From Thermoproteota archaeon (GTDB taxonomy: Archaea; Korarchaeota; Korarchaeia; Korarchaeales; Korarchaeaceae): DNA of 21,785 nt. The notes below the pieces were generated by a model. That model ran no database searches, had not been told where the DNA came from, and worked only from the letters and a program-made list of their open reading frames with translations. Positions 585 to 15,767 of the stretch are shown in pieces (position 1 is the first letter of the stretch; every line of letters starts with the position of its first letter). The translations under genes were made by a program, and so were the position numbers. The stretch covers positions 1 through 21,785 of the forward strand of contig JAOZGP010000037.1 of assembly GCA_027491735.1 (NCBI GenBank). The letters are read 5' to 3'.

Positions 585-3302
585 CTAACTTCTTATTTCA
601 GTTATGTTGTCCCTCTTGATTAGCTCTATTATCTCGTCAGCTACACTTTTGAAGGCTTCCGAGTGCGTGACAACGATCACCTGAGGAATGCTTATCGATC
701 TTAAAGCGCTAAGCAGAGCCATTTTCCGATCTTCATCGAGGTGAACTGTGGGTTCGTCCATCAAGATGAGCTCTACTGATCTTCCGAGTTTAGCCATAGC
801 TATACCTAACCTGAGGGATAAAGCCGCCGCTATCTTCTCTCCACCGCTGATCTGATCTGAGGAGAACTCTTTTCCATCGTATAGGAGGAGGAGTTCATAA
901 TCGGGAGTTATCCTGATCCTGTCGAAAGGTAGACCAAATTCTTGAAAGATTTTATTAGTATGATATTCTATCACAGGTCTGGCCCTGTCCCTCAGCGCCC
1001 TCTGAAGACCGTCCTTGCTGAAGGCCGATCGTATGCTTTCCAAAGCAGATATCGCTGCATTTAATCGCTCTAGTTTCCTTCTCTCCTTGTTATACTCATT
1101 CAATTTTGCTTTGTATTCCTCAATTCTGGAGAGAAGTTCCGAGCGAACTCCAAAGAGCTTGGATCTCTCCTCCCTGAGGCAGCCCAGCTCCTTTGTTATT
1201 TGCTCAATTCTGCTGATGACCTCCAAAAACTTATCCTCGTCAAAGCCGAGCTCATCCATGTCCCTGCGCACTCTCTCGATCTCCTCGGCAAGTCGAACTT
1301 TCTGTGCGTGCAGATCGGCCAGGAGTTGTTGCAGCGATTCTCTCTTGTTCAGAAATTCTAAGTACTTCAGATAATTTTCCTTTGATGCTTTACACTTTTC
1401 CAAAGAAGGTATCGTCCCCAGCTCCTCTATGAGCGCTTTCTCGATGAATTTCCTCTTCTCCCTTAATTTCTCAAGCCTCCTCCTTAATTCCTCAATCCTA
1501 TCCGCCCTCTCTTCTCTCTTCAAGAGAAGATCATCTAATATTGCTTTTTTCTTTATAATTTCATCTCTCTCTTTCTTTTTTGCATTCAAACTCTTGTTTA
1601 ACTCATCCAGTCGGGATTCCAAGCTTCTTCTTAGGGAAATCATGTCCTGAAGGGAGGAGACCGAAGGTTTGAGGTCCCTGAGCTCATATAAAGCTGTCAT
1701 CAGATCTTCTACCAGTTTTTTGATGATGGGAAGTCTTCCTTCAGCTGTTCTTATTATGGAGGAAAGGGCTTCCATCATCCCCTCCAGATTGCAGCTTATC
1801 AGCTCCCTTTCATGTATTGACCTGCCAAGTCTGGTCATCTCCAGGGATTTTTCCCTGATGATCTCCCTGGTCCTATCAGCTGTAAGGCTCGATCCACAGA
1901 CCGGACACCTTGCCTCTACCTGAGAGAGCATTTCCAACAGTTTTGAGAGCTCATCATATCTCTGCTTGTCCTTGGCTATCTCGCCATCGACCTCCTTCTT
2001 CAAGTCAACGAGTTGATCAAGCTGGAGAGAGAACTTCCTCGTCAAGTCCTCCAGGTCTCCCACGTTCAAGGCGCTAATAACATCCCCTACACCTTTTTGA
2101 AGGTGCGTCCCACCTATCAAAGGAGCTAAATCTTTGATTAAGGAGCTGAGTTCCTCCTCCATGTGCCTTACGTTTTCTTCAAGCTTTGTGGACCTCTCCC
2201 TAGCTATTCGAGCTTTTTCCATGTCCTTCTCCAGTGAATCAATCCTTTTCCTGATCTGATCTATTTTCTGTTCCAGGATCCTCACCTCGTTGTCCACAAT
2301 GGACAACCTACTTATCTCACGTCGTAAGTTGTTTGCTCTCCTCTCATCGCTTTCTAACTTCGCAATATCATCTTCCTTGGATTTCACCTCCTCTGATAGA
2401 TAATTAAGCTCTAGAATTTTTTCATAAGCATTGGAGAGCCTTCTCTCCAGATCTACGTCTATGTCTTTCATAATTTTGTTTATTCTATCGATCTCTGATC
2501 TTATCTCCAGTTCTCTGCTTGAAATCTCTTTGATTTTTTTGTTTTTCTCCTCAGCTTTTGAGGAGAGCTTTATGTATTTATCTCTCACATCTAAAAGGAC
2601 CTTCTTTCTGTCCTCATCGGTCTTGAGCTCCTCCTCAAGATACTTTATTCTTTCCTCCACGGAGCCTATTCTGGAGCTCACCTCACCTAGTTTTGCTTCA
2701 AGGCTCCTCAGAACTTCGGCTGGGTTATCAGCTGAGAGATATCCGGCTATTTTATCTCTCTCCTCCTTGAGGACTGTCAGCGGCTCGAGGAGGGTCTTGT
2801 ATATATCCTCAAGGTCGTCAACTCCGATCAGCTTGCCCACCAGCTCCTTTCTTCTATGAGGCTGTAGATCGATCAGGGAGGAAATCTCTCCCTGTTTTAT
2901 GTAGACTGCTCCTGTGAAGACGTCCTTGGAGATGCCAATTATGTCCCCAACGCTCTTTGTGACGTCCCTCTGTCCGGTCTGTATCACCCTCCAACGGGTC
3001 CCATCAAGGACGAGAAGTCTTGCCCTTGGAGAGTCGCCTCTGGAGACCTCCCGGATCACTTTATACAATTTTCCCTCAGATTCGAACTCAAGCTCGACTC
3101 GCATCGTGTTGGATCCAGATCTTATCAGCTCATCCCTCTTGAGATGGCTTGTATCCGGAAATAGAGCGAAGCAGATCGCTTCGAGAAGGGAGGTCTTACC
3201 TGATCCGTTGGGACCTATTATGGCCACTAAACCATCCGAAAATCTCAGATCTGTGGATCTATGTGATCTGAAGTTGACGAGTTTAACGGACCTTATCCTC
3301 AT
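585..3302 (-). CDS. rad50: DNA double-strand break repair ATPase Rad50
   Basis: Walker A GPNGSGKT, Q-loop YIKQGEI, long coiled coils with a central zinc hook CPVCG, signature ISGGE, Walker B/D-loop LILMDEPTVHLD and H-loop VVTH. Overlaps the mre11 stop. Confidence 0.96.
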   Translation of the reverse strand: MRIRSVKLVNFRSHRSTDLRFSDGLVAIIGPNGSGKTSLLEAICFALFPDTSHLKRDELIRSGSNTMRVELEFESEGKLYKVIREVSRGDSPRARLLVLDGTRWRVIQTGQRDVTKSVGDIIGISKDVFTGAVYIKQGEISSLIDLQPHRRKELVGKLIGVDDLEDIYKTLLEPLTVLKEERDKIAGYLSADNPAEVLRSLEAKLGEVSSRIGSVEERIKYLEEELKTDEDRKKVLLDVRDKYIKLSSKAEEKNKKIKEISSRELEIRSEIDRINKIMKDIDVDLERRLSNAYEKILELNYLSEEVKSKEDDIAKLESDERRANNLRREISRLSIVDNEVRILEQKIDQIRKRIDSLEKDMEKARIARERSTKLEENVRHMEEELSSLIKDLAPLIGGTHLQKGVGDVISALNVGDLEDLTRKFSLQLDQLVDLKKEVDGEIAKDKQRYDELSKLLEMLSQVEARCPVCGSSLTADRTREIIREKSLEMTRLGRSIHERELISCNLEGMMEALSSIIRTAEGRLPIIKKLVEDLMTALYELRDLKPSVSSLQDMISLRRSLESRLDELNKSLNAKKKERDEIIKKKAILDDLLLKREERADRIEELRRRLEKLREKRKFIEKALIEELGTIPSLEKCKASKENYLKYLEFLNKRESLQQLLADLHAQKVRLAEEIERVRRDMDELGFDEDKFLEVISRIEQITKELGCLREERSKLFGVRSELLSRIEEYKAKLNEYNKERRKLERLNAAISALESIRSAFSKDGLQRALRDRARPVIEYHTNKIFQEFGLPFDRIRITPDYELLLLYDGKEFSSDQISGGEKIAAALSLRLGIAMAKLGRSVELILMDEPTVHLDEDRKMALLSALRSISIPQVIVVTHSEAFKSVADEIIELIKRDNITEIRS

Positions 3303-4485
3303 CCATCCACCCCTTGATCAAGGAGAGGACCTCTTTGCTCAGATCCCCTCCCCTTTTTCCCTCCAGGTATTTGTGATAGATCTCAAGAGCCAAGGCCAGC
3401 TCGGTGGGCCTGTCATGAAATATATGCGCCATTAGCTCCTCCATGTTCAGAGAGATCTGCCCGTCCAAGGTCGCAAGATGACTCTCTACGACGGGAGATA
3501 CCTCTATCAAGATCTTCAATGATCTATCTCCGAACTCGTGGTGAACGTCCTCTCTGAACTCATCGATCATGTGGAGAAGTTCCTGTCTCACCAACAACTT
3601 GATCCTCACCATCGGCTTCTTTCTCAAATCGATCTCCTTAAACCTCCTTGAGAGGCTATCCAGAACTAGTTGTAGATCAGATGAACGCCGAACTTCTCTT
3701 TTTATCAGAAAATAGGGCCTTGGGGAGTTTATCTCAACGAATCTCGCGTTGATGTTGCCCTCCTCCAGATCAACAACGAAAAATCCCTTGGGCACATTTT
3801 GTCTAACTTCCCTCTCCTCGAGGTTCTCAAGGGAGCCAGGATAAGCGAATACCTTGCCTGTCACGCCATCCCTCTTGTGGAACCTCACGTGATAGTGGCC
3901 GAGAGCGATATAGTCGAAACAGGTCCTGTCAAGAAAGGCCTTGTTTATCTCCGTCTTGAAGTCCCTCAGAAAGGGCTTAACCCCTTGATGAAGCATCAGG
4001 ATCCTCCACCTAGCTCTACATCTCCTGGCTGCTCCATCACACCTCTCAATGATTGCTTTCTTCAGGTTCTCTCCCTCCTGGTTGGGGAAGTACTGGAGTC
4101 CGCAGAGCACCAGATCGCCAGTATTGAACATAGGGTTGTTCTGGTTCAGATGAATGAAGTCATCTCCGAATATCTCCACCAGGAGGCTTAAGGGCGTTTC
4201 CTTGCCGCCACCAAACCTCGGGCCTATGTCGTGATTTCCCGCTATGGCCACCACGGGGATGCCAGCATCAATTATCCTCCGCAGGGAGACTATAGCCTTC
4301 CTCAGTGTGTAGGAGGTGGGACGATAGGTGTCAAACAAATCACCACTGTGGATCATGAGATCTGGTCTCAGCTTCCTGGCCTTCTCACAAGCCTCATCGA
4401 AAGCCTCATAAACGTCCTCTTCTCTCTCTCTTATCCCTTTTTCCCTCCTTCCCAGGTGAGTATCGGATATGTGCACTATCCTCAT
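3283..4485 (-). CDS. mre11: DNA double-strand break repair nuclease Mre11
   Basis: Phosphoesterase motifs SDTHLG, HSGDLFD, GNHD, LHQG, ALGHYH and YPGSLE. Start moved to ATG 4485 (MRIVHISDTH), which forms an ATGA overlap with the herA stop. Confidence 0.95.
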   Translation of the reverse strand: MRIVHISDTHLGRREKGIREREEDVYEAFDEACEKARKLRPDLMIHSGDLFDTYRPTSYTLRKAIVSLRRIIDAGIPVVAIAGNHDIGPRFGGGKETPLSLLVEIFGDDFIHLNQNNPMFNTGDLVLCGLQYFPNQEGENLKKAIIERCDGAARRCRARWRILMLHQGVKPFLRDFKTEINKAFLDRTCFDYIALGHYHVRFHKRDGVTGKVFAYPGSLENLEEREVRQNVPKGFFVVDLEEGNINARFVEINSPRPYFLIKREVRRSSDLQLVLDSLSRRFKEIDLRKKPMVRIKLLVRQELLHMIDEFREDVHHEFGDRSLKILIEVSPVVESHLATLDGQISLNMEELMAHIFHDRPTELALALEIYHKYLEGKRGGDLSKEVLSLIKGWMDEDKVR

Positions 4486-6155
4486 TGAAGCATACCCCCA
4501 TACCCATTGTCCAGATCTATCCGCTCCATGGAGGTCGATTTCGATCTCCACCTGCCCACTGCGTCTATGTCCGATCCACCGATCTTGCCCTCGGCTTTGT
4601 CGAACTTTATTATAGCTGGAACCTGTACCATGGGTCCCACCAAGATCGCCTCTCCTACGTTCAGGGATGGGAGGTACTCCATGAGGTCCTCGCTAAGGAA
4701 CTCAGACGACCTGCGGACGTAGGCCTGATCCTCGGGCTCTATTACACGCAGCACTATCTTGTTCACCATCTGGGAAAGGACATCCGGATCCAGCCTTTTA
4801 GGTCTCTGGCTAACCAGCGCTAATCCCACTCCAAACTTTCTACCTTCTCTAGCTATTCTGGAGGCTATCTCCTTTGTGTAGGTCTTCAGATCCACTGGTA
4901 TGAGGAGATGTGCCTCTTCTATTATTGCTAGAACCGGATAGGAAACTCCCTCCCTTGATAGACCAAGAACCGCTCCCTTGGCCCTGTGAAGCAAAGTTGA
5001 GAGTGCATGTCCGACCACCAGATCCGCCATCTCCGTGTCAATGGATCCAAGCCTGACTATCACAAGCCTGGAGAAATCTATGTAATCTATTATCTCTCCA
5101 TTGTTGGGCTTCAACAGGGAACCGTACCGATCTCTCACCATCTGAAGCCTTGACTTTAGGCTGTAGAGACTGTCCCTATCCCTCTTGTTCAACAACACCT
5201 TTTCCCCTAGAGATGATAAGACGCCTCTTCCGCCGTTTTCCGCTGAGAACGTGATCATGTTGCCATCCTGGTGTTTCCCTCCCTCCACCAGCTGTATCAT
5301 CTTGGATATGATGGCGGATATGCTGTCCAGATAATTGGGCTCCTCGGGAGGACGTTCACCGCATTCCTGCATGAGAGCTCCAAGGAGATCTCTTGTGTGA
5401 GCTTTATGAACAACCTTCCAGGCGAATCTGAGGTAGATGTACTGTTTGGCTGCCTTGTCCCAGGAGATGCCGAGAAGCTTTGAGGTCTCCTCCAAGCTGA
5501 GTGCATTAGGATCGACGAAGGGCTCGACCTCGACTACCTCCCCCCTGTCAAGGTTCAGTCCGGTGTACTCCGAGTGCATATCGAACAGAATGAGGGGAGC
5601 TCCGAGCTTCAGGGCCTCCTTCACTATCACAGCTATGGCGTTTGACTTACCGGCCCCGGTGACCGCCAGCACTGCCAGATGTCTGGAGATAATCCTGTTC
5701 ATGTCAGCATAGACCTTCACCTCCTCCCTCGTCAAGAGGTGTCCTAGTCTCACATGTCCGGTGTTAGGACCGAAGATCATGTCCAATATGCCTTTAGGAG
5801 CTCTCCTAACAATGCTGCACGTTGGAGGAGGACTTCTCGGCATTGAGAGCTTCACGTGATCTTCCTCCAGGTTGATGACACCTAGCAACTTTATTTTAGC
5901 CCTGGACCAGTGACTGGGCTCCCTGAGTATCTTCAGAATTTTTTCCATGTTCTCGGCGAAGTTTATGTCTCTCCCGGATATCTCGACTGACCCCCTCTCG
6001 ACCCATGTCACAAGGCCGAGGAGTCGAGCTTCTGAGGATTCGATTATCACGTAATCTCCGATCTGAGGAATCGAGCCCGTGAAGGCGACCATATCGACGG
6101 AGAGGGGAGTTGTTACCTCAGCAACTCTCCCCAGAATATCAGAATTTCTCTCCAA
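4482..6155 (-). CDS. herA: Bipolar DNA helicase/translocase HerA
   Basis: N-terminal HAS-barrel-like region, RHLAVLAVTGAGKS (Walker A), FDMHSEY, IIEEAH (Walker B), AREGRKFG and SQRP. Operon context agrees. Confidence 0.94.
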   Translation of the reverse strand: MERNSDILGRVAEVTTPLSVDMVAFTGSIPQIGDYVIIESSEARLLGLVTWVERGSVEISGRDINFAENMEKILKILREPSHWSRAKIKLLGVINLEEDHVKLSMPRSPPPTCSIVRRAPKGILDMIFGPNTGHVRLGHLLTREEVKVYADMNRIISRHLAVLAVTGAGKSNAIAVIVKEALKLGAPLILFDMHSEYTGLNLDRGEVVEVEPFVDPNALSLEETSKLLGISWDKAAKQYIYLRFAWKVVHKAHTRDLLGALMQECGERPPEEPNYLDSISAIISKMIQLVEGGKHQDGNMITFSAENGGRGVLSSLGEKVLLNKRDRDSLYSLKSRLQMVRDRYGSLLKPNNGEIIDYIDFSRLVIVRLGSIDTEMADLVVGHALSTLLHRAKGAVLGLSREGVSYPVLAIIEEAHLLIPVDLKTYTKEIASRIAREGRKFGVGLALVSQRPKRLDPDVLSQMVNKIVLRVIEPEDQAYVRRSSEFLSEDLMEYLPSLNVGEAILVGPMVQVPAIIKFDKAEGKIGGSDIDAVGRWRSKSTSMERIDLDNGYGGMLQ

Positions 6156-7305
6156 GCATCTCCCTCCCAGAAAGAAGACACATTCTCCAAAAATCTGAGC
6201 CTAACACATCTCGAACAGCTCTGAGGTGACCCTTGGTTATCTTCGCCACCTCGTGACTCATCCTGAGGTGGTATGGATAACCGTTCACGGATATTGCAGA
6301 TAGGAAATCGAGTACCTCGCCAACGGATCTTCGATCGAGCTCTCCAAGCACCTCAATCCTCAAGGGGTTTGCCTTTTCATGAAGCCTTGCGTAGAAAACG
6401 GTTATCTTTCTGCAGATCCGGCTCTGGAAGTATTTTGGGAGCTTCACCTCTCCAACCATAGGCGAGGTAAACCCCGTCTCCCTTGTGTAAGCGCCTATCA
6501 GGGAGATGTCGGGCGCAAACCTTCTGAACAGCTCCCTGCTCGAAGACCTCTTGGAGATAGCTACTACTAAAACATTCTTGGGCAGAGAAAGAAGTCTGGA
6601 AAGCACCATGAAGTGCTCTACCCTCTCCATGAGGGACATTATGAGCCACTCCAGCCTGGAAATCTCTAAAGAGCTTTCTCCAAGATCCTCCGCTATCCTA
6701 ATGGCAGCGCTCCATCGATCCATGTACGTGCTCATGTCCGCCGTGTAAACCCTATCGCTCTCCCTCAGGAACTTCTCCAGAGGCAGCTCGTTCTTTATTC
6801 TGCCAACTATCTCCGCTCTCTCGCTTTCATCCAACAGGTAAAGTCGCCCCTCCCTTCTCCTCATCAGACCCACAAACATCGGCTCCTTAGTTAACGAGAT
6901 CAGCGATCCATCGAGAAGGACAACCTCGGGGTTCGTTCTTTCCGCATATCTCACCGTTAATTTCAACTCCAAAGTGCTCCTAAGTATGCGCACCCTGTCC
7001 TCCGGCTTGAACCTATCTAATAGACCTACCTGGTACCTCCTCAGCTTAACCGGGCTCTGATCCAACATCCCGAAGACTGCGGCTGATATGACGAAGACCA
7101 CATTTCCGGGACCAGCTGGAAGAGAGCCGCTGCTTCCGTCTGATGATAATATTCTGTCGTGGGGTTTTGACTTCTCGTCAGGGGACCAGCTGATCCATTT
7201 GGCCCTCACATCCCCGAAAGAAGCAGTCGAGTTCATGAACCTCTCGAGGATCTCCTTTGTCTCCAGAGTGCTCTCAACTATGTCCTCCAGTTCCTCGTAC
7301 ATCAT
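6139..7305 (-). CDS. nurA: 5'-3' nuclease NurA
   Basis: SDGS, LLDGSL, AISKRS and GYPYHLRMSHEVAKI motifs typical of NurA. First gene of the operon; overlaps the herA start. Confidence 0.9.
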   Translation of the reverse strand: MMYEELEDIVESTLETKEILERFMNSTASFGDVRAKWISWSPDEKSKPHDRILSSDGSSGSLPAGPGNVVFVISAAVFGMLDQSPVKLRRYQVGLLDRFKPEDRVRILRSTLELKLTVRYAERTNPEVVLLDGSLISLTKEPMFVGLMRRREGRLYLLDESERAEIVGRIKNELPLEKFLRESDRVYTADMSTYMDRWSAAIRIAEDLGESSLEISRLEWLIMSLMERVEHFMVLSRLLSLPKNVLVVAISKRSSSRELFRRFAPDISLIGAYTRETGFTSPMVGEVKLPKYFQSRICRKITVFYARLHEKANPLRIEVLGELDRRSVGEVLDFLSAISVNGYPYHLRMSHEVAKITKGHLRAVRDVLGSDFWRMCLLSGREMLGEKF

Positions 7306-7370: not shown

Positions 7371-8768
7371 TTGGATAGCAGGCTTCTGGCAGCCTTTGAC
7401 CCCAGATCCGTAGCAATCATAGGAGCCTCAAGGCATGAGGAGAAGATCGGTTTTGTGATCCTGAGGCAGCTCATCAGGGCTGGTTACGAGGGGAGGATAT
7501 ATCCAGTAAATCCCTCTGCAAAGGAGATCTTGGGGTTGAGATGCTACAAGAGCGTCGCTGACGTTCCTGATGAGATAGATCTAGCGGTTATCGCTGTCCC
7601 AGCAAAAGTCGTTCCGAGTGTGATGAGGAACTGCGGAGCCAAGGGCGTTAAGGTTGCCGTCGTGATAAGCTCAGGGTTCTCTGAGATCGGAAATAAGGAG
7701 CTTGAGGAGAAGGTCATCAGGATAGCTAAAGAACACGGTGTGCGTGTGATAGGACCGAACTGCATGGGAGTATTCAACCCAGAGAAGGGACTTGACATGC
7801 TCTTCGTCAAGGATGAGCTTCTGCCCAGATGTAGGCCGGGAAGTGTGGCCCTTCTATCACAGAGCGGAAGTGTTGGAACGAACATGATGAGCGCTCTTAG
7901 GAAGATGAATATGGGATTAAGCAAGTTCGTGAGTTACGGAAACAAGGCGGATGTCGATGAGGCAGATCTCCTGGAGATACTTCGCGAGGATCCGACAACT
8001 AAAGTCGTGTCCATATATCTTGAGGGAGTTCGTGACGGAAGACGCCTTATGGATGCCATAAAGAGGACTGTTCCTGTGAAACCTGTTGTTGTAATAAAGG
8101 TGGGGAGGTCTCAGGTGGGAGAGAGAGCCGTGGCCAGCCATACAGGATCGCTGGCTGGATCCAGCGACATCTACCTCGCGGCTCTCAGACAAGCGGGGGC
8201 TATCCTGGTGGAGACCTTCGAACAGCTATTGGATGTGTCCAAGGGATTAAGCATGCAACCTCCCTCTGGAGGGAGGAGGGTCTTCGTTATAACGAATGGA
8301 GGAGGATATGGAATCATGGCCGTCGACGAGCTGGAGAGAAGGGGAATAGTTCTGCCAAGGATTCCGGAACCCATTAAAAGAGCTCTGAGGGAGGAGTTTC
8401 CCCCATACTACTCGATAGACAATCCCATGGATCTGACAGCTGACTCCACGTCAGACCAGTACAGAAGAGCCATGGAACTCCTGGGATCTTCTGACGAGTG
8501 TGACTCCCTCCTAGTGATCCCCCTGCTTGGAATACCGGGCTTCGATCCGATGGAAGTGGCTGAAGTCATGGTGGACTTTAGAAAGCGGTTTAAAAAACCG
8601 ATCGTTGTTTCCTTTATTTCACACACCAAGGAAACAGATAGAGCAAAGGAGTTCATGGAGAAGAACGACGTACCAGTCTACGAGTCCCCTGAAAGAGCTG
8701 CCTTGGTCATACAGAAGCTTGTTGAATATGGAGAAATTCTCAGGAGGATTAAATCATCGCGGAGGTGA
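7371..8768 (+). CDS. acdA: Acetate/acyl-CoA ligase (ADP-forming), alpha subunit
   Basis: PRSVAIIGAS, GPNCMG, SQSG, YGNKADV, phospho-His motif SHTGSLAG, TNGGGYG and NPMDLT. Start moved to TTG 7371 after SD GGAGGTGA (7359-7366). No beta subunit in the window. Confidence 0.9.
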   Translation: MDSRLLAAFDPRSVAIIGASRHEEKIGFVILRQLIRAGYEGRIYPVNPSAKEILGLRCYKSVADVPDEIDLAVIAVPAKVVPSVMRNCGAKGVKVAVVISSGFSEIGNKELEEKVIRIAKEHGVRVIGPNCMGVFNPEKGLDMLFVKDELLPRCRPGSVALLSQSGSVGTNMMSALRKMNMGLSKFVSYGNKADVDEADLLEILREDPTTKVVSIYLEGVRDGRRLMDAIKRTVPVKPVVVIKVGRSQVGERAVASHTGSLAGSSDIYLAALRQAGAILVETFEQLLDVSKGLSMQPPSGGRRVFVITNGGGYGIMAVDELERRGIVLPRIPEPIKRALREEFPPYYSIDNPMDLTADSTSDQYRRAMELLGSSDECDSLLVIPLLGIPGFDPMEVAEVMVDFRKRFKKPIVVSFISHTKETDRAKEFMEKNDVPVYESPERAALVIQKLVEYGEILRRIKSSRR

Positions 8769-10110
8769 AGCCAACATCCTTTACGGCTATCAGAGGAGCC
8801 TCCACTGGAACACCGTACTCCATCCACCAGTGATATATCTGCCGCGTATTCCTCCCGAGGCCAATCACGCTCGACATCATTCTCAGGATGTTATCGCTGA
8901 GCCGTAGACCTCTAACGGCGCCAACGACCTCTTCATTCTCAACGAAGAGGAGACCATCCCTCACGATCGCTGAGAAGTCTCCCGAAACGTAATCTTGGAA
9001 TCTTAGATAGGTAGCATTCCTGACTATGAGTCCCTTGCCTATTTCCGATAGTAGATCTTCCTCCGACTCATCTCCTGGAAGGAGAATCGGATTCCATGGC
9101 GTTGGATTAATCCATCCAGCGTTTGAGGTGGTCTCCGTCTCCATGGCCTTCGCTGTCAGCCTGTTGTGGAGATATGTCCTAAGTATTCCCCTGTCCACTA
9201 TGAAGTTCCTTCTCGTCGGAAAGCCCTCCTCGTCAAACGACCGCGAGCCATATCCACCGGGCTTTAGGGGATCATCCACTAAGGTGAAGAACTCAGGAGC
9301 TAACCTCTCGTTAAGCTTTCCTCCATAAGGAGACATCTTGGATAGAACTGATAGCGCGCTCGCCAGAGAGCCCATCACTCCGACTATGTTTCCAACAGCG
9401 CTGTACCAAAGCAGGGCGTTGTACCTTCCGGGTCCGAGTTTAATGTGCTTTTCTGAGATCTTGGCATCAAGTCCAGCCTCCTCTCCTGCCTTGCTGGGGT
9501 TGAGACCGGACAGCCTCCTAGAACAGCTGAAGGAGTGACCGGTAGCCTCCGAATTCCTGATGGCCCTCACATCCAGGTGAACGTTGGATCTTCTCTCACA
9601 AACCTTAACGCCGGAGGTCGTGGCCAAGCATTCAGTGAAGGCTTTGCTCCTTACGGATCCAGCAGCTCTTCTGGCGCCCTCGGCCAAGGCTGCGTCTATG
9701 GCCACGTGAGCCAGATCGACGAGTTTCTCAGAGGGATCCTCCAGGGAACTGTCGTAGAGATCCGGAATGATGGGATAGTCCATGGGTCCTTCCGGCAATG
9801 GCGAATAGACTTCTCTTTCCGGAAGACTTCTCAGAGCTTTCATCGTTCTACCTAGCTGCTTTCTTATGGATCTCAGGTCCTTAGTGCTCATGAAGATTGT
9901 CTGTATTCTCCTGTTCCAGATCACCTGGATCCTGAGGCTCACATCGATCCACGTCTTCACCACGTCCACTCTATTATTGGAGAACCTCACCTGACTTCCA
10001 GGTCCTTCGGAGAGGAGAACAGCTACCTCATCAGCTCCTAAGCATAGAGCTTCGCTGATCACATCTTCAACAAAACCCAAAGCTTCCTCATATCCCGCCA
10101 AGCCCGACAC
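8749..10110 (-). CDS. pmbA: TldD/PmbA family protein, PmbA/TldE-like (non-catalytic) subunit
   Basis: VRFSNN at the N-terminus, 'DDPLKPGGYGSRSFDEEGFPT' and 'YLHN...TTSNAG'. Lacks HExxGH; overlaps the tldD stop. Confidence 0.85.
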   Translation of the reverse strand: MSGLAGYEEALGFVEDVISEALCLGADEVAVLLSEGPGSQVRFSNNRVDVVKTWIDVSLRIQVIWNRRIQTIFMSTKDLRSIRKQLGRTMKALRSLPEREVYSPLPEGPMDYPIIPDLYDSSLEDPSEKLVDLAHVAIDAALAEGARRAAGSVRSKAFTECLATTSGVKVCERRSNVHLDVRAIRNSEATGHSFSCSRRLSGLNPSKAGEEAGLDAKISEKHIKLGPGRYNALLWYSAVGNIVGVMGSLASALSVLSKMSPYGGKLNERLAPEFFTLVDDPLKPGGYGSRSFDEEGFPTRRNFIVDRGILRTYLHNRLTAKAMETETTSNAGWINPTPWNPILLPGDESEEDLLSEIGKGLIVRNATYLRFQDYVSGDFSAIVRDGLLFVENEEVVGAVRGLRLSDNILRMMSSVIGLGRNTRQIYHWWMEYGVPVEAPLIAVKDVGFTSAMI

Positions 10111-11488
10111 CTCTGAGCCTCAGGGTAGGTCCACCCGTCCAGACGGGGACCCCCTGCATTGGATCTCCCTTACCACAGGTGGCCGCTTGGAACTCCAAAT
10201 CCCTGCCCACTGCGTCCACACTCGAGTAAAACCTGGGTGTTGTGATTTCCAATACAGGCCTAAGAATCATTGAGTCTATCCTTCCTCCCCTTATCAGGTA
10301 GGCCTCGGACCCCACGTATCTCTGATTGTACCTGCGATCGTCTATGTTCCACTCCATGAACCGCTTCATGTAGATCCCCTCGGAGACGCCCTCTATGATC
10401 TCACCGGGATCCATGTCACCGGGCGCTATGAATGTGTTCGCCATCCTCACTATCGGTTCACGATTGTAGGCGGAGGCCCTGGCAGAACCATTGCTCACTG
10501 TGGAAAATTCTGAGGCAGTTTCTCTGTTGTGAAGAAATTCGTTTATCACTCCATTTTTCATTAAAACCCTCCTTCTAGTTTTAACCCCTTCAAAATCGTA
10601 GAGATAGAACCCATAACTCCCCTCAATGGTCGGGTCATCCACGACGCTTATGAGCCCCGTGCCCATGTTGGACCCCAGCATGTCAGGGGTCACAAAGGAT
10701 TCACCTGCCTGTGCAGCCTCCCTACCGAGTATTCTGTCCGCCTCATAGGGATGACCCACCGACTCGTGTGCAACCAGACCGGAGACATACGGTCCTATGA
10801 CCACGTCCATCTTGCCCCTCGGGGCAGAAACTCCCTTTTCCAGCCGTTCCTTCATGTTTTTAGATAAGGATCTGACGAGCTCCGGGAGGTTCCACTCGTC
10901 TATCAGCTCCAATCCCCCACTGCCTCCCCTGGACTCCATCTCCTGTGTAGAGGAGGAACCGGAGACATGAGTCAAGAACACCTCAAGCTTGACTCTAGTG
11001 ACCTCTCCAGACGTCTCGGCTCCGTCAGTATTGAGAATCAGGACTTTCTCTCTCGATAGTTTTAAAAATATGTTTCTCGAGGAGATGTCCTCATCGGCCG
11101 CTGAGGAGTCTACTTGCCGCAGAACCTCCATCTTTTCCCGAAAGGACGTCGAGAAGGGATCTTTCAATACCCTGGAACTGTAGCTTGCCTTCTCAAAACA
11201 CTCTTGAGACAAGCAGACATTTTTATCCGACGCTCTCGAGTTCTTAAGAGCTAACTCAACGGCTCTGTCTATTTTAGATGGATCTGCTGTCGAGGCGAAT
11301 CCCATTCCTGTTGTTAGGATTCTGATGGCGGTTCCTTTAGACTCAGATGACGAGAAAGTCTCCAGTACCCCGTCCCTCATCCAGATGAACTCCTCCTCCG
11401 TGAGATGAACCCTCAACTCTCCGTAGTCCACATTAGGCATCTTCTGAAGAGTTCTATGAGCGGAACTCACGAGATCGCTCCAGGACAA
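10088..11488 (-). CDS. tldD: TldD metalloprotease (catalytic subunit)
   Basis: HESVGHPYEADR zinc motif, DDPT...YDFEG, RMANT and the C-terminal CGKGDPMQ. Start probably TTG 11488 after an AAGGTGG SD-like site. Confidence 0.9.
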   Translation of the reverse strand: MSWSDLVSSAHRTLQKMPNVDYGELRVHLTEEEFIWMRDGVLETFSSSESKGTAIRILTTGMGFASTADPSKIDRAVELALKNSRASDKNVCLSQECFEKASYSSRVLKDPFSTSFREKMEVLRQVDSSAADEDISSRNIFLKLSREKVLILNTDGAETSGEVTRVKLEVFLTHVSGSSSTQEMESRGGSGGLELIDEWNLPELVRSLSKNMKERLEKGVSAPRGKMDVVIGPYVSGLVAHESVGHPYEADRILGREAAQAGESFVTPDMLGSNMGTGLISVVDDPTIEGSYGFYLYDFEGVKTRRRVLMKNGVINEFLHNRETASEFSTVSNGSARASAYNREPIVRMANTFIAPGDMDPGEIIEGVSEGIYMKRFMEWNIDDRRYNQRYVGSEAYLIRGGRIDSMILRPVLEITTPRFYSSVDAVGRDLEFQAATCGKGDPMQGVPVWTGGPTLRLRGVGLGGI

Positions 11489-11514
11489 AAGACCACCTTT
11501 CTCCACCGTTTGAA

Positions 11515-11730
11515 GGATTAATAAAACGCTTTCCAATGAGGTTCTGTTAACCTATCGTTGGTGAAATAAAAAATATTGAACTCACATCCCGTTTATTGGA
11601 TACAAACCTTGTTAGCTTAGTTTGGTAAAACTGTATTTGGAAACCCCAAAAAATCCTCGTGGATTTCACATACCCGCTTACGTCAACAATAAGTTAACGA
11701 AACTTCCAATAACAAAATTTTTTATTGTGT
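11515..11730. promoter_or_regulatory. Divergent tldD/pspA promoter region with two mirrored operator-like sites
   Basis: AT-rich intergenic region. TATA-like TTTTATTAA (minus, ~11518-11526) and TTTTTTATT (plus, 11718-11726). Imperfect AAC-N5-GTT palindromes at 11546-11562 and 11681-11699, and a perfect AAATCC-N4-GGATTT at 11651-11666. Confidence 0.6.
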
Positions 11731-11754
11731 GAATGGAGGGAGTTTTGATGAACC

Positions 11755-12462
11755 ATGACAGGGCTTTTTGATCGAGTCAAGGCCATAGTCTCAGCGAAGG
11801 TAAACAAGTTGTTGGATAAGTATGAGGACCCGAGGGAGCAGCTGGATTACGCCTATGACAAGCTCAATCAGCAGCTCCACAATGTAGATATGGCTCTAGC
11901 CAGAGCTATAGCCTCAAGGAAGAAACTTGAGTTCACTAAAAAACGCCTGCAGGAGAGGGTGAAGGATCTTGAGGATAGCGCTAAGAAAGCGATGCAGCTC
12001 GGCAGGGAGGATCTAGCCAGAAAGGCTTTAGAGAGGAAGATCGTGTTGGAGAGAGAGCTTGAAAGCATAGACAAGAGGATAGAGGAGATGAAATCCGAGG
12101 AGGAAGGTCTTAAGGATGTCAGGGAGAAGCTGAGGTCTCAGGTGGATTTGTTTAGAGCTAAGAAGGAGCAACTCAAGGCGGAATATGAGGCCAGCAAGGC
12201 CCAGGTGGAGGTTAAGGAGATGATCTCCGGGCTTGGCGATAGTGTTGCCTCGATTTCAGAGACAATAGAGCGCGCTGAGAGGAAGATAGATGATCTCAAA
12301 GCTAGATCCGCAGCCCTTGATGAAGTAGTCGCCGTGGGAGGGGATCTAGACCTCCTCCAGGATGAGGAGAGGGATGAGATAGAGAAGGAGCTCGATAAGA
12401 TCTCTTTATCTCAGCAAGTTGAGGAGGAGTTTGCCAAGCTCAAGCAAACAGTGAAAGGCTGA
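11755..12462 (+). CDS. pspA: PspA/IM30 (Vipp1) family protein, ESCRT-III superfamily
   Basis: Amphipathic helix 0 'MTGLFDRVKAIVSAKVNKLLDKYEDP', coiled-coil hairpin with 'AKKAMQLGREDLARKAL', 'ERAERKIDDLKARSAALDE' and terminal 'VEEEFAKLK'. Confidence 0.93.
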   Translation: MTGLFDRVKAIVSAKVNKLLDKYEDPREQLDYAYDKLNQQLHNVDMALARAIASRKKLEFTKKRLQERVKDLEDSAKKAMQLGREDLARKALERKIVLERELESIDKRIEEMKSEEEGLKDVREKLRSQVDLFRAKKEQLKAEYEASKAQVEVKEMISGLGDSVASISETIERAERKIDDLKARSAALDEVVAVGGDLDLLQDEERDEIEKELDKISLSQQVEEEFAKLKQTVKG

Positions 12463-12498
12463 AGGAATTCATTTCTTTTCTCGAGGGAGGAACGACCC

Positions 12499-12894
12499 GT
12501 GAGAGCATCGCAGGTATTGCTTTACATAGCATCTGCCATAGCCATTTTTCTGGGCCTTATGTTCTTGATAGCCTCGGTCTATGCTGCTTCAAGAATAGTT
12601 GTAGGCCTTGCCTTGCTGCTCGGAGGAGGTCTATGCATTCTCTGGGCTAACAACATAGGAAGAAGCGCTGTCAGGAGAGGAAAGCTTGAGTCCGCTGTCC
12701 TAAGTCTGGCAAAGGACAGAGGAGGAAAGCTCACTGCGGCAGAGGTATCGGCTGAGTTGGGGGTTCCAGTGGATGTAGCCAAGCAGGTGTTGGCCTCTTT
12801 GGAGAGAGAGGGTCTAGCCTACCTGGACTTCGAGGAGATAGACAAGGAAGGCGTTGAGGTGTACAGGTTTCCGGGAGTGATCAAGGAGAACTGA
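12499..12894 (+). CDS. Membrane protein: two N-terminal TM helices + C-terminal winged-helix domain (ESCRT-II Vps22/EAP30-like by eye)
   Basis: GTG start after SD GGGAGG (12485-12490). Hydrophobic segments at about aa 6-29 and 33-50, then 'VLSLAKDRGGKLTAAEVSAELGVPVDVAKQVLASLEREGLAYLD...GVEVYRFP', a wHTH with wing. Lies 36 bp after pspA. Confidence 0.8.
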   Translation: MRASQVLLYIASAIAIFLGLMFLIASVYAASRIVVGLALLLGGGLCILWANNIGRSAVRRGKLESAVLSLAKDRGGKLTAAEVSAELGVPVDVAKQVLASLEREGLAYLDFEEIDKEGVEVYRFPGVIKEN

Positions 12895-14642: not shown

Positions 14643-15767
14643 TTATGAGCTTTGTTGCTTCCTGGCCTTTACCTCGAAGTCCTTTTTAAGAGAACGTAGA
14701 AGAAAGGAGCAGGGATATCTGGCAACTTCTATCCTCCTTCCGGGAAGAGGAGCATATTCCACACCGAAGCACTCCAGATCGTTGAGATCCACGAGATCCT
14801 CCTCCACGAGTTTTTTAAATGTATTCAGAGGCATCATTACCTTCTCCCCACTGACAGCGAAGTCCTCTCCATGGAGAGCATGAGTAATTCTCCTCAGGAG
14901 GAGCTTGCTACCGCTCAGCTCCACACGAAATACGGTGCCATCCTCGGTCACGTCCTCGTACGACTCAGCCGCCCTCTTAGCCCTTCTCCTCCATCTGGTC
15001 CACATCTGGTAGTCCTTCTGGGCCGCTGGGCAGAAGTATCCGTCTATGCCGGTGTTTCTTTCCACGAAGCTCAGCACGTCCTTCGCAGCATCCCTGCTTC
15101 CGGAGACAGCCACCTCACTCTCCGGTGAGGGTTTAAGTCCCATATGCAGGAGCTCCTTTCTGTTCATCTCGCTGAACTCGAGTTCGTTTAGATTTAGGAA
15201 CCTTCCTCCTCCTCTGTCTAGATGAAGAGCCAAATCCTTGAGCCTCCTGATGTAGGGGGACAGGGGTATCGCGGGCATCTCAAAGCCCACACAGAGACCG
15301 CTGTCCTGAGCTGCCTCCACAAGGTTCCACACATCATCATCCCAAGAATGGAACCTTATCTCATCCAGGCCCACGTCGGCAAGTTTGCTGAGCTTTTCTT
15401 CGTCCATGAGAACCCCGTTAGTGTACATGTGGATGTGGAGCTTTGCTCCGAGCTCCCCCCTGACGATCTTTATGTACCTCAGAACCCTATCGAGTACCAG
15501 AGCAGGCTCTCCTCCAGTCACGCTCATCCCCTCAGCATCGATGGCCCTCAGCTCCGCTATCACATCACTCACGTCCTTGACCTCGATCTCGTCAACGAAC
15601 TGAACGTCCCTGCCTCTCCTCCAAGAAGATATGGTACAGTAGAAGCACGAGCTGTACAGATTGCAGAGCCCTGTGATGAAGACCACAGCTTTCGATCCTC
15701 GCCAACAGAGCTCACATCCTCTGCTCCATCCCCTGACACGTAAAGCTCCGAGCTTGAGTTCCTCCAA
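14643..15767 (-). CDS. Radical SAM protein (archaeal uncharacterised, COG2108-like)
   Basis: GCELC N-terminal pair, 'VFITGLCNLYSSCFYC', TGGEP, HMYTNG, DEIRFH, FLNLNELEFSE and FCPAAQKD. Confidence 0.85.
   Translation of the reverse strand: MEELKLGALRVRGWSRGCELCWRGSKAVVFITGLCNLYSSCFYCTISSWRRGRDVQFVDEIEVKDVSDVIAELRAIDAEGMSVTGGEPALVLDRVLRYIKIVRGELGAKLHIHMYTNGVLMDEEKLSKLADVGLDEIRFHSWDDDVWNLVEAAQDSGLCVGFEMPAIPLSPYIRRLKDLALHLDRGGGRFLNLNELEFSEMNRKELLHMGLKPSPESEVAVSGSRDAAKDVLSFVERNTGIDGYFCPAAQKDYQMWTRWRRRAKRAAESYEDVTEDGTVFRVELSGSKLLLRRITHALHGEDFAVSGEKVMMPLNTFKKLVEEDLVDLNDLECFGVEYAPLPGRRIEVARYPCSFLLRSLKKDFEVKARKQQSS

Follow-up and report, generated by a model that had tools for sequence, protein, structure and literature searches.

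A two-transmembrane winged-helix protein encoded directly after pspA in Korarchaeota: a candidate membrane-resident partner of PspA

Introduction

[quoted passage not shown] Small membrane proteins encoded together with pspA or liaH, such as PspB/PspC for PspA and LiaI for LiaH, tether or control the effector. We analyse here a stretch of 21,785 nucleotides, called below the window, from a Thermoproteota archaeon that GTDB places in Korarchaeota (contig JAOZGP010000037.1, C12 in our numbering, of a source genome of 1.36 Mb that is 88% complete). In this window pspA, a membrane-repair gene, is followed by a gene for a 131-residue protein composed of two transmembrane (TM) helices and a single winged helix (wH), which we name TM-wH. 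The two genes are inherited together in archaea, and on balance we lean towards seeing in TM-wH a dedicated membrane-resident anchor or adaptor of PspA.

Several described systems come close to this arrangement. VIA1, a thylakoid membrane protein made of TM helices and two wHs, binds VIPP1 through a loop of its wH (PMC13505992). Its authors call it ESCRT-II-like, with Snf8 among their structure matches (bioRxiv 10.1101/2023.10.10.561251; PMC13505992). The first-pass annotation of the window, made from its sequence, had proposed that PspA is partnered by a membrane-anchored wH protein: for the PspA family, such a pairing has an experimental precedent in this VIA1–VIPP1 couple (PMC13505992). In LEM2 it is the C-terminal wH that binds CHMP7 and activates it (bioRxiv 10.1101/577460). 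Ravi et al. (2024) define PspAA, a partner of PspA to which we shall return (PMC11237479). Makarova et al. (2024) report that PspA genes often adjoin wH genes, in bacteria as well as in archaea, and take this as connecting what would become ESCRT components (PMC10936438). They draw on Popp et al. (2022), whose main text mentions neither winged helices nor Korarchaeota nor Crenarchaeota. A review of 2025 takes ESCRT-II-related components in cyanobacteria as a hint at further discoveries (PMC7619361).

As a general idea, the partnership between wH proteins and the PspA family has already been published, and for VIPP1 it is proven. A 2TM-wH gene placed 3′ of archaeal pspA is not described in the parts of the texts on PspA and ESCRT available to us, and the neighbourhood and arCOG supplements of Ravi, Popp and Makarova et al. 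may contain it. Relative to those parts, what is new is the archaeal partner made of two TM helices and one wH, together with the facts that it is strictly co-inherited with pspA and that it takes the place of PspAA.

A gene pair inherited as a unit

The elements of the locus are the following:

11718–11726, plus strand: TATA-like box TTTTTTATT, 29–37 nt 5′ of the pspA start (sequence reading)
11735–11741, plus strand: Shine-Dalgarno-like GGAGGGA, 5′ of pspA (sequence reading)
11755–12462, plus strand: pspA, 235 aa, ATG start, PspA/IM30 family (ESCRT-III superfamily)
12485–12490, plus strand: Shine-Dalgarno GGGAGG, in the 36-nt spacer, 8 nt 5′ of the GTG of the TM-wH gene (sequence reading)
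12499–12894, plus strand: TM-wH gene, 131-aa 2TM and winged-helix protein, GTG start (open reading frame scan)
12505–12657, plus strand: TM hairpin, aa ~3–25 and 32–53, with a six-residue outer loop (AlphaFold2 helices)
12670–12879, plus strand: winged-helix domain, aa 58–127, acidic (AlphaFold2 model)

The assignment of pspA is straightforward: the PspA_IM30 family (PF04012) matches its product with an E-value of 6.7e-29 (101.5 bits for a cut-off of 33.9, profile positions 1–214 of 220), and this is the only PF04012 match of the source genome. The TM-wH gene lies on the same strand, 36 nt further on. That pspA is followed at this distance by a gene with its own Shine-Dalgarno sequence, encoding a 131-residue protein that combines two TM helices with a winged helix-turn-helix, had been read from the sequence in the first-pass annotation; the open reading frames (ORFs), the GGGAGG motif and the structure model all agree with it. 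The TATA-like box is likely to be the promoter of a two-gene operon, if we judge from its sequence and place, and most of 18 related loci have a box of the TTTTTA(T/A) type about as far 5′ of pspA. Among 29 related loci the spacer between the two genes ranges from −11 to +55 nt; it is mostly of 10 nt at most, or the genes overlap, which fits co-transcription. Both genes are under purifying selection (dN/dS against a genome of the same genus: 0.057 for pspA, 0.13 for the TM-wH gene).

How far is the pair conserved? Our sample of the phylum comprises 43 genomes from 10 genera. The TM-wH profile matches 36 of them, PspA_IM30 matches the same 36, and by their coordinates the two genes are adjacent on one strand in every one of these. 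At all 30 loci inspected pspA is directly 5′ of the TM-wH gene. Seven genomes (G003, G004, G022, G032, G034, G036 and G042), two of which are 95% and 98% complete, are devoid of both genes together. The pair remains intact at loci where the neighbouring genes for a tRNA-binding protein and a beta-CASP nuclease have been rearranged (L025, L028, L031, L032) or are absent (L009, L010, L088, L091). The homologues of TM-wH carry the NCBI names Candidatus Korarchaeota or Thermoproteota archaeon. Five of 401 sampled Thermoproteota genomes possess PspA, at seven loci, and two of the 401 encode a full-length TM-wH of 132 aa, both times directly after pspA (L125, L126). Metagenome loci tell the same story, with pspA then TM-wH in three of three. 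The pairing put forward in the first-pass annotation is thus a conserved one, in the phylum (36/36), in Thermoproteota (2/2) and in metagenomes (3/3). Because the two genes are co-inherited, it is very unlikely that they form a pair without any functional link.

The place directly after pspA is also that of another small protein. At three Thermoproteota loci (L122–L124) and at one in Thermoplasmatota (L111), the gene downstream of a related archaeal pspA is that of PspAA (PF22743). The PspA of L111 is 38% identical to that of the window; in Thermoplasmatota at large, PspA exceeds the cut-off in two of 301 sampled genomes, followed in one by PspAA and in the other by no nameable partner. PspAA has no match in any of the 43 phylum genomes, with Methanosarcina acetivorans as a control that was matched, and it accompanies TM-wH at no locus examined. 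We therefore see two different small partners occupying the same slot 3′ of related pspA genes. TM-wH was itself considered as a form of PspAA and rejected: it has no PF22743 match at E ≤ 1, and hhalign gives its wH family a probability of 0.8% against true PspAA. PspB (PF06667) and PspC (PF04024) have no match in the source genome, at its 88% completeness, and none to TM-wH. The earlier statement that the usual partners have no recognisable gene here stands for PspB and PspC in the source genome and for PspAA in the whole phylum sample.

Two side observations concern PspA. Throughout the phylum its residues 191–215 make a nearly invariant acidic C-terminal motif, GG.LD.LEPEE[RK]D.IE[RK]EL, in which G196, D199, L201, E204, E205, D207, I209, E210 and L213 do not vary; this motif may be an interaction site. 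At L120 and L121, in the Thermoproteota genomes that hold the pair (G457, G433), there is a second PspA paralogue, with a gene for the large subunit of DNA primase some 170 nt (~170 nt) downstream.

Anatomy of the TM-wH protein

The AlphaFold2 model of TM-wH, built on a 39-sequence alignment, has a mean pLDDT (predicted local distance difference test) of 92.2. It consists of helices 3–25 and 32–73, a strand (77–79), helices 80–87 and 91–103, a wing helix (111–117) and a last strand (121–123). The first helix is hydrophobic throughout and the second over its first two-thirds, which makes two TM helices. Because basic residues flank them (MR.. N-terminally and RSAVRRGK behind TM2), we infer from the positive-inside rule that both ends of the protein, and the wH with them, are cytoplasmic. 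The first helix of the wH is, in the model, the unbroken continuation of TM2, with no linker, so that the domain would sit on the inner surface of the membrane. The hairpin is itself conserved, with invariant columns at G19, F22, A25 and R32 of the alignments, which suggests that it is more than a passive anchor. In the wing the conserved motif is LDF..I...GVEVYR, where D110, F111, G118, V121 and Y122 are invariant.

The wH of the window protein is acidic. Its net charge is −4 (pI 4.7), with −5 in the wing and 0 in helix 3; the mean is −2.1 for 18 relatives and −2.4 for 39 family members, to be compared, as a proxy only for DNA binding, with 0 to +10 in six TrmB-type wH segments of the source genome. 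Acidic, and pinned to TM2 by a continuous helix in the model, this domain does not look DNA-binding. The first-pass preference for a protein-binding rather than a DNA-binding wH is upheld to the extent that acidity can tell the domain from the TrmB-type wHs of the same genome.

The same traits bear on quite a different function. TM-wH could be a membrane-tethered transcription regulator in the manner of PspF, ClgR or ToxR-like proteins, its wH binding the pspA promoter, with membrane stress or PspA acting to release or occlude it. Operons of the psp type often encode their own regulator (PMC11237479), an inverted repeat (I5) overlaps the TATA-like box of pspA, the fold is tied with those of many DNA-binding wHs at Z-scores of 9–10, and the wH segments of 21 family members draw matches under the cut-off to TrmB (13), Rrf2 (10) and MarR_2 (7). 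A regulator of this kind would have to work, however, with an acidic domain whose recognition helix carries no net charge, held against the bilayer without a linker, and with a six-residue outer loop for any extracellular sensor. No DNA-binding family exceeds its Pfam cut-off, and by eye there is no conserved palindrome 5′ of pspA in 18 loci besides the TATA-like box. We consider such a regulator quite improbable.

Likeness to the second winged helix of SNF8/Vps22

When the single TM-wH sequence is compared with all sequences of the PDB using phmmer, human SNF8 (Vps22), a subunit of ESCRT-II, comes first (2zme_A, E 1.3e-3; 3cuq_A, 1.9e-3). Residues 65–112 of TM-wH are aligned with 181–227 of SNF8, with 20 identities over 47 pairs, including QVL..L..EGLA.LD. 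The alignment given in the first-pass annotation, with about 20 identities over 46 positions, is thus a real one. A profile of five sequences gives SNF8 an E-value of 3.2e-6, the next best match being at 0.042. With 39 sequences, bacterial members included, SNF8 reaches 4.8e-8, followed by the ribosomal protein eS25 at 1.1e-5 and by transcription factors from 0.007. With 21 archaeal sequences restricted to the wH, the second wH (WH2) of SNF8 is at 1.4e-8 (37.4 bits) and the runner-up, 17 bits below, at 3.3e-3 (20.3 bits). As the score rises with the depth of the profile, the match must be more than chance.

Folds were compared as well. Among 48,161 chains searched with VIA-align, human SNF8 ranks first (Z 11.0, 69 residues aligned, root-mean-square deviation 2.0, 33% identity), a Z-alpha domain second (Z 10.8, the Z-alpha range being 10.8–11.0) and yeast Vps22 third (Z 10.4, 69 residues, deviation 2.2, 19% identity). 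The WH2 of SNF8/Vps22, singled out in the first-pass annotation, is indeed the best solved match by sequence and within the top three by fold, level there with DNA- and RNA-binding wHs. From sequence and model we conclude that the wH of TM-wH is probably of the protein-binding type, with Vps22 WH2 as its nearest solved look-alike.

Predicted contact with PspA and a model for the pair

The first-pass annotation had suggested modelling the pair with a multimer predictor, and the outcome is weakly positive. For PspA with residues 52–131 of TM-wH (alignments of 18 rows each) the score is 0.46 (0.44, 0.46 and 0.47 in the individual runs), against 0.00 for the best of three controls; at least 25% of contacts coincide between runs, and the pLDDT of the partner is at least 83. 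In the benchmark, which holds only roughly here since custom alignments were used, 58 of 80 solved complexes attain the mark, as do two of 110 mismatched pairs; at scores of 0.60 or less it is attained by only seven of the 80 solved complexes, together with both of the mismatches that passed.

The reading we favour can be put as follows. The pspA and TM-wH genes would make a two-gene operon. TM-wH would be a protein of the cytoplasmic membrane, its two TM helices forming a hairpin and both its termini lying in the cell interior, TM2 would continue into the acidic wH at the inner face of the membrane, and this wH would bind PspA by protein–protein contact. In so doing TM-wH might recruit, nucleate or restrain the PspA polymer at the membrane, while the conserved hairpin may signal what state the bilayer is in. 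The protein would take the operon slot of the soluble PspAA. It would be the functional counterpart of LiaI and PspB/C in bacteria, of VIA1 in cyanobacteria and chloroplasts, and of LEM2 for CHMP7.

A number of observations weigh against this reading, or against the ESCRT-II kinship that may be attached to it. The genomes of the phylum are kin, so that 36 out of 36 does not stand for 36 independent events: counted by genus, eight of ten hold both genes and two of ten are without either in any genome. The sole direct test of binding between the wH and PspA is the weak in silico pass just described, which defines no interface. Relatives of TM-wH in Chloroflexota, treated below, have no PspA within 5 kb at any of 27 loci; one such genome (G046) has no PspA_IM30 match, and in five others PspA lies elsewhere and has no member of the TM-wH family next to it. 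The wH fold is a generic one: Vps22 is tied within one unit of Z with Z-alpha, TFIIIC and many wHs of transcription factors (Z 9–10), and Foldseek, which also puts SNF8 first, separates it from a Z-alpha domain by 4.8e-3 versus 5.5e-3. The fold check proposed at the outset cuts both ways, then, as Vps22 takes ranks 1 and 3 of 48,161 and shares that level with DNA- and RNA-binding wHs.

Family assignment points in the same direction. The Pfam family of ESCRT-II subunits, EAP30 (PF04157), has a cut-off of 26.8 bits, which neither the whole TM-wH (19.5 bits) nor its wH alone (20.4) attains, and the match covers positions 169–218 of 219 only. The DNA-binding families are likewise under their cut-offs, given here in brackets: TrmB 18.2 (25.6), Rrf2 18.6 (30), MarR_2 17.3 (27) and HTH_IclR 15.5 (22). 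EAP30 appears below the cut-off in 12 of the 21 wH segments, next to the 13 of TrmB and the counts for Rrf2 and MarR_2 given above; for 39 family members the figures are nine for TrmB and four for EAP30. Furthermore, the subunit of ESCRT-II that touches ESCRT-III is Vps25, not Vps22 (PMC13505992; bioRxiv 10.1101/2023.10.10.561251), which does not support the inference of the first-pass annotation that a Vps22-like protein nucleates PspA.

These data bring forward another explanation of the SNF8 likeness: TM-wH and SNF8 would have converged on a common wH sequence pattern, with no special kinship to ESCRT-II, whatever the role of the protein with PspA. We find this rather probable. The EAP30 model matches in 13 of 14 control genomes at E ≤ 1, never over its cut-off. 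In the source genome all its matches are wH matches of this kind, and the protein listed here scores 19 bits, more than the 16.8 bits of TM-wH:

G000:C21:31162–31314 (L002, ORF 1459–1731), minus strand: eS25-like ribosomal winged-helix protein, 90 aa, EAP30 match

The last wH of the EAP30 model is therefore unspecific. With the 39-sequence profile, eS25 is second. Among the 55 PDB matches of the wH-only profile at E ≤ 10, human SNF8 is the sole ESCRT-II subunit, yeast Vps22, Vps36 and Vps25 being absent. The architecture differs too, as EAP30 proteins combine an N-terminal helical region with tandem WH1–WH2, and TM-wH has two TM helices and one wH. Yet convergence alone has to account for an SNF8 score that grows with profile depth and stands clear of the next match in the wH-only search, and for an unbiased fold search in which both human and yeast Vps22 WH2 reach the top three with all 69 residues aligned up to the C-terminus.

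NCBIfam has no family for TM-wH, and neither Snf7 nor Vps4_C exceeds its cut-off in the source genome, at 88% completeness. The kinship with EAP30/Vps22 claimed in the first-pass annotation does not extend to family membership, with matches below the cut-off and level with TrmB, a single wH, and no yeast ESCRT-II chain matched by sequence. It is unlikely that TM-wH is a true relative of the Vps22-type wH nucleating PspA, which would give Korarchaeota a two-gene ESCRT-II/III-like module. That the Psp and ESCRT branches are linked by descent through TM-wH is a hypothesis.

Bacterial relatives and a radical SAM cassette

The TM-wH family is broad. A profile search of 1.84 billion representatives retrieves 685 proteins with E ≤ 1e-3, of which 43 have E ≤ 1e-10; most of the family measure 130–180 aa and are built on the 2TM-wH plan. 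In Anaerolineae many carry an additional zinc ribbon at the C-terminus, and it is these 2TM-wH-zinc-ribbon proteins that are the closest bacterial relatives. In Chloroflexota a protein of ~390–420 aa of no known family, which we call X, is encoded at 26 of 27 loci, mostly directly 5′ of the TM-wH gene, and a PqqD/radical SAM/SPASM gene stands before it at 23 of 27. An orthologous PqqD/radical SAM/SPASM gene (37% identity, E 9e-84) is found 5′ in four of five Thermoproteota-type loci. The slot taken by X in Chloroflexota is that of PspA in the archaeal loci. That the nearest bacterial relatives are not beside PspA lends no support to the partnership proposed in the first-pass annotation.

This opens the way to another function. 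TM-wH might be linked functionally to PspA without binding it, as a general membrane-proximal adaptor or sensor that has other partners and whose tie with PspA would be a shared stress regulon; one candidate partner would be the product, or the machinery, of the radical SAM/SPASM enzyme that is its neighbour in other lineages. A family that lives mostly away from PspA, the enzyme gene recurring upstream in both domains, fused forms that include TMEM43, double zinc ribbons or tandem wHs, and a TM hairpin as conserved as the wH itself would all fit such a role. In archaea the facts are less accommodating: TM-wH always comes directly after pspA and is lost together with it, the orthologous enzyme gene is unlinked in the phylum (in the source genome it is on contig C30), and the complex prediction is weakly positive where its controls are null. 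We regard an adaptor that does not bind PspA as rather unlikely, and keep to the reading of TM-wH as the anchor or adaptor of PspA.

Further observations may be recorded on the cassette. Its general form, PqqD/radical SAM/SPASM – middle gene – 2TM-wH, is common to both domains, the middle gene being that of X in Chloroflexota (L036–L062) and pspA in the Thermoproteota-type loci (L125, L100–L102). For the enzyme there is no fitting NCBIfam equivalog. Downstream of the TM-wH gene, L125, L100 and L101 share a conserved ORF of 72 aa. The ortholog in the source genome (G000:C30:27367–28599, L127) is 47% identical, unlinked to pspA, and contains one in-frame TGA. The radical SAM gene of the window (14643–15767) was tried as the cassette enzyme and rejected (E 0.003). 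Protein X from Anaerolineae, a helical protein (alignment A7), shows no relation to PspA by hhalign (probability 3.4%). Its profile search of the PDB returns coiled-coil noise only, it matches no Pfam or NCBIfam family, and its best Atlas score is 0.83, to no named family.

Within the family, variants (P0048, P0051, P0052, P0057, P0075, P0081, P0038, P0069) have tandem wHs after the TM hairpin, or are preceded by TMEM43 or by double zinc ribbons. Extension by a long helical part at the C-terminus also occurs, and several zinc-ribbon forms end in Y[GR]MD. P0081, which joins 2TM-wH to a long C-terminal helical part, has a probability of 0.6% against PspA. Fused or longer forms were found for none of 8000 candidates with the 39-sequence alignment, which is weak evidence. 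For the homologue P0003, Atlas yields unnamed bacterial clusters (0.92), clusters bearing MarR (0.87–0.88) and a Thorarchaeota cluster (0.86), all to be taken as leads only. Finally, some genomes of the phylum, the source genome not among them, have ORFs of ~300–320 aa with one wH that matches positions 46–124 of the family profile at E ~1e-7 (for example G029:C2:361244–361480, G012:C142:3137–3364 and G030:C54:1537–1794). Judged by this match, they appear to be a second, longer type of wH protein, related to TM-wH through its wH.

Other genes of the window

The neighbourhood of the pair is as follows:

585–7305, minus strand: Rad50 (zinc hook), Mre11-like phosphoesterase, HerA and NurA, a complete archaeal operon for double-strand-break resection
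8749–11536, minus strand: PmbA/TldD metallopeptidase pair, divergent from pspA
14643–15767: radical SAM gene

The window also encodes a CoA ligase, a tRNA-binding protein, a beta-CASP nuclease and surface proteins. In the 218-nt spacer between pspA and the PmbA/TldD genes, two TATA-like AT-rich boxes mirror each other as an inverted repeat (I2).

Significance and comparison with known systems

The pair bears on two questions: how PspA and Vipp1 are targeted to membranes, and where ESCRT-II comes from. So far a wH partner is experimentally proven only for VIPP1, with VIA1. We have here a compact archaeal system of two genes (235 aa and 131 aa), the partner being anchored in the membrane, co-inherited and, among solved structures, most like Vps22 WH2. 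It lends itself to asking in vitro whether a single membrane-bound wH suffices for the recruitment or nucleation of a PspA polymer, and whether wH and ESCRT-III meet at an ancient interface or at one that was invented repeatedly. Should the pair be an ESCRT-II/III-like module, then, together with VIA1–VIPP1, it would mean that the partnership between wH and ESCRT-III predates the archaeal ESCRT system, and the ~390-aa protein X of Chloroflexota would become a candidate for a new membrane-remodelling polymer. Should TM-wH instead act as a regulator, or as an adaptor that is unrelated, all this would shrink to a lineage-specific Psp partner.

Set beside the systems described so far, the pair resembles each of them in part. 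With the PspA–PspAA dyad (PF22743; Ravi et al., 2024, PMC11237479) it shares a small same-strand gene placed directly after archaeal pspA, in the same slot; PspAA, however, is soluble and unrelated in sequence to TM-wH. LiaI and PspB/PspC are, like TM-wH, small membrane partners of a PspA-family effector (PMC11237479), but they possess no winged helix and have no sequence relation to it.

Where eukaryotes are concerned, the WH2 of Vps22/SNF8 is the best solved match to the wH of TM-wH, and it binds protein, not DNA; TM-wH has TM helices instead of the N-terminal helical region and WH1. LEM2, of the Heh1/MAN1 family, is a two-pass membrane protein whose C-terminal wH acts at the membrane on an ESCRT-III-type polymer, CHMP7. 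Compared by description, it differs in its location in the eukaryotic inner nuclear membrane and in its LEM and low-complexity domains, and CHMP7 has Vps25-like wHs of its own.

VIA1–VIPP1, in cyanobacteria, algae and plants, offers the likeness of a membrane-anchored wH protein binding a PspA-family, hence ESCRT-III-like, protein. Again compared by description, VIA1 has three TM helices with wHs at both its N and C ends, where TM-wH has two TM helices and one wH; and its description does not present it as an operon partner of vipp1, whereas TM-wH is strictly operon-linked to pspA in archaea.

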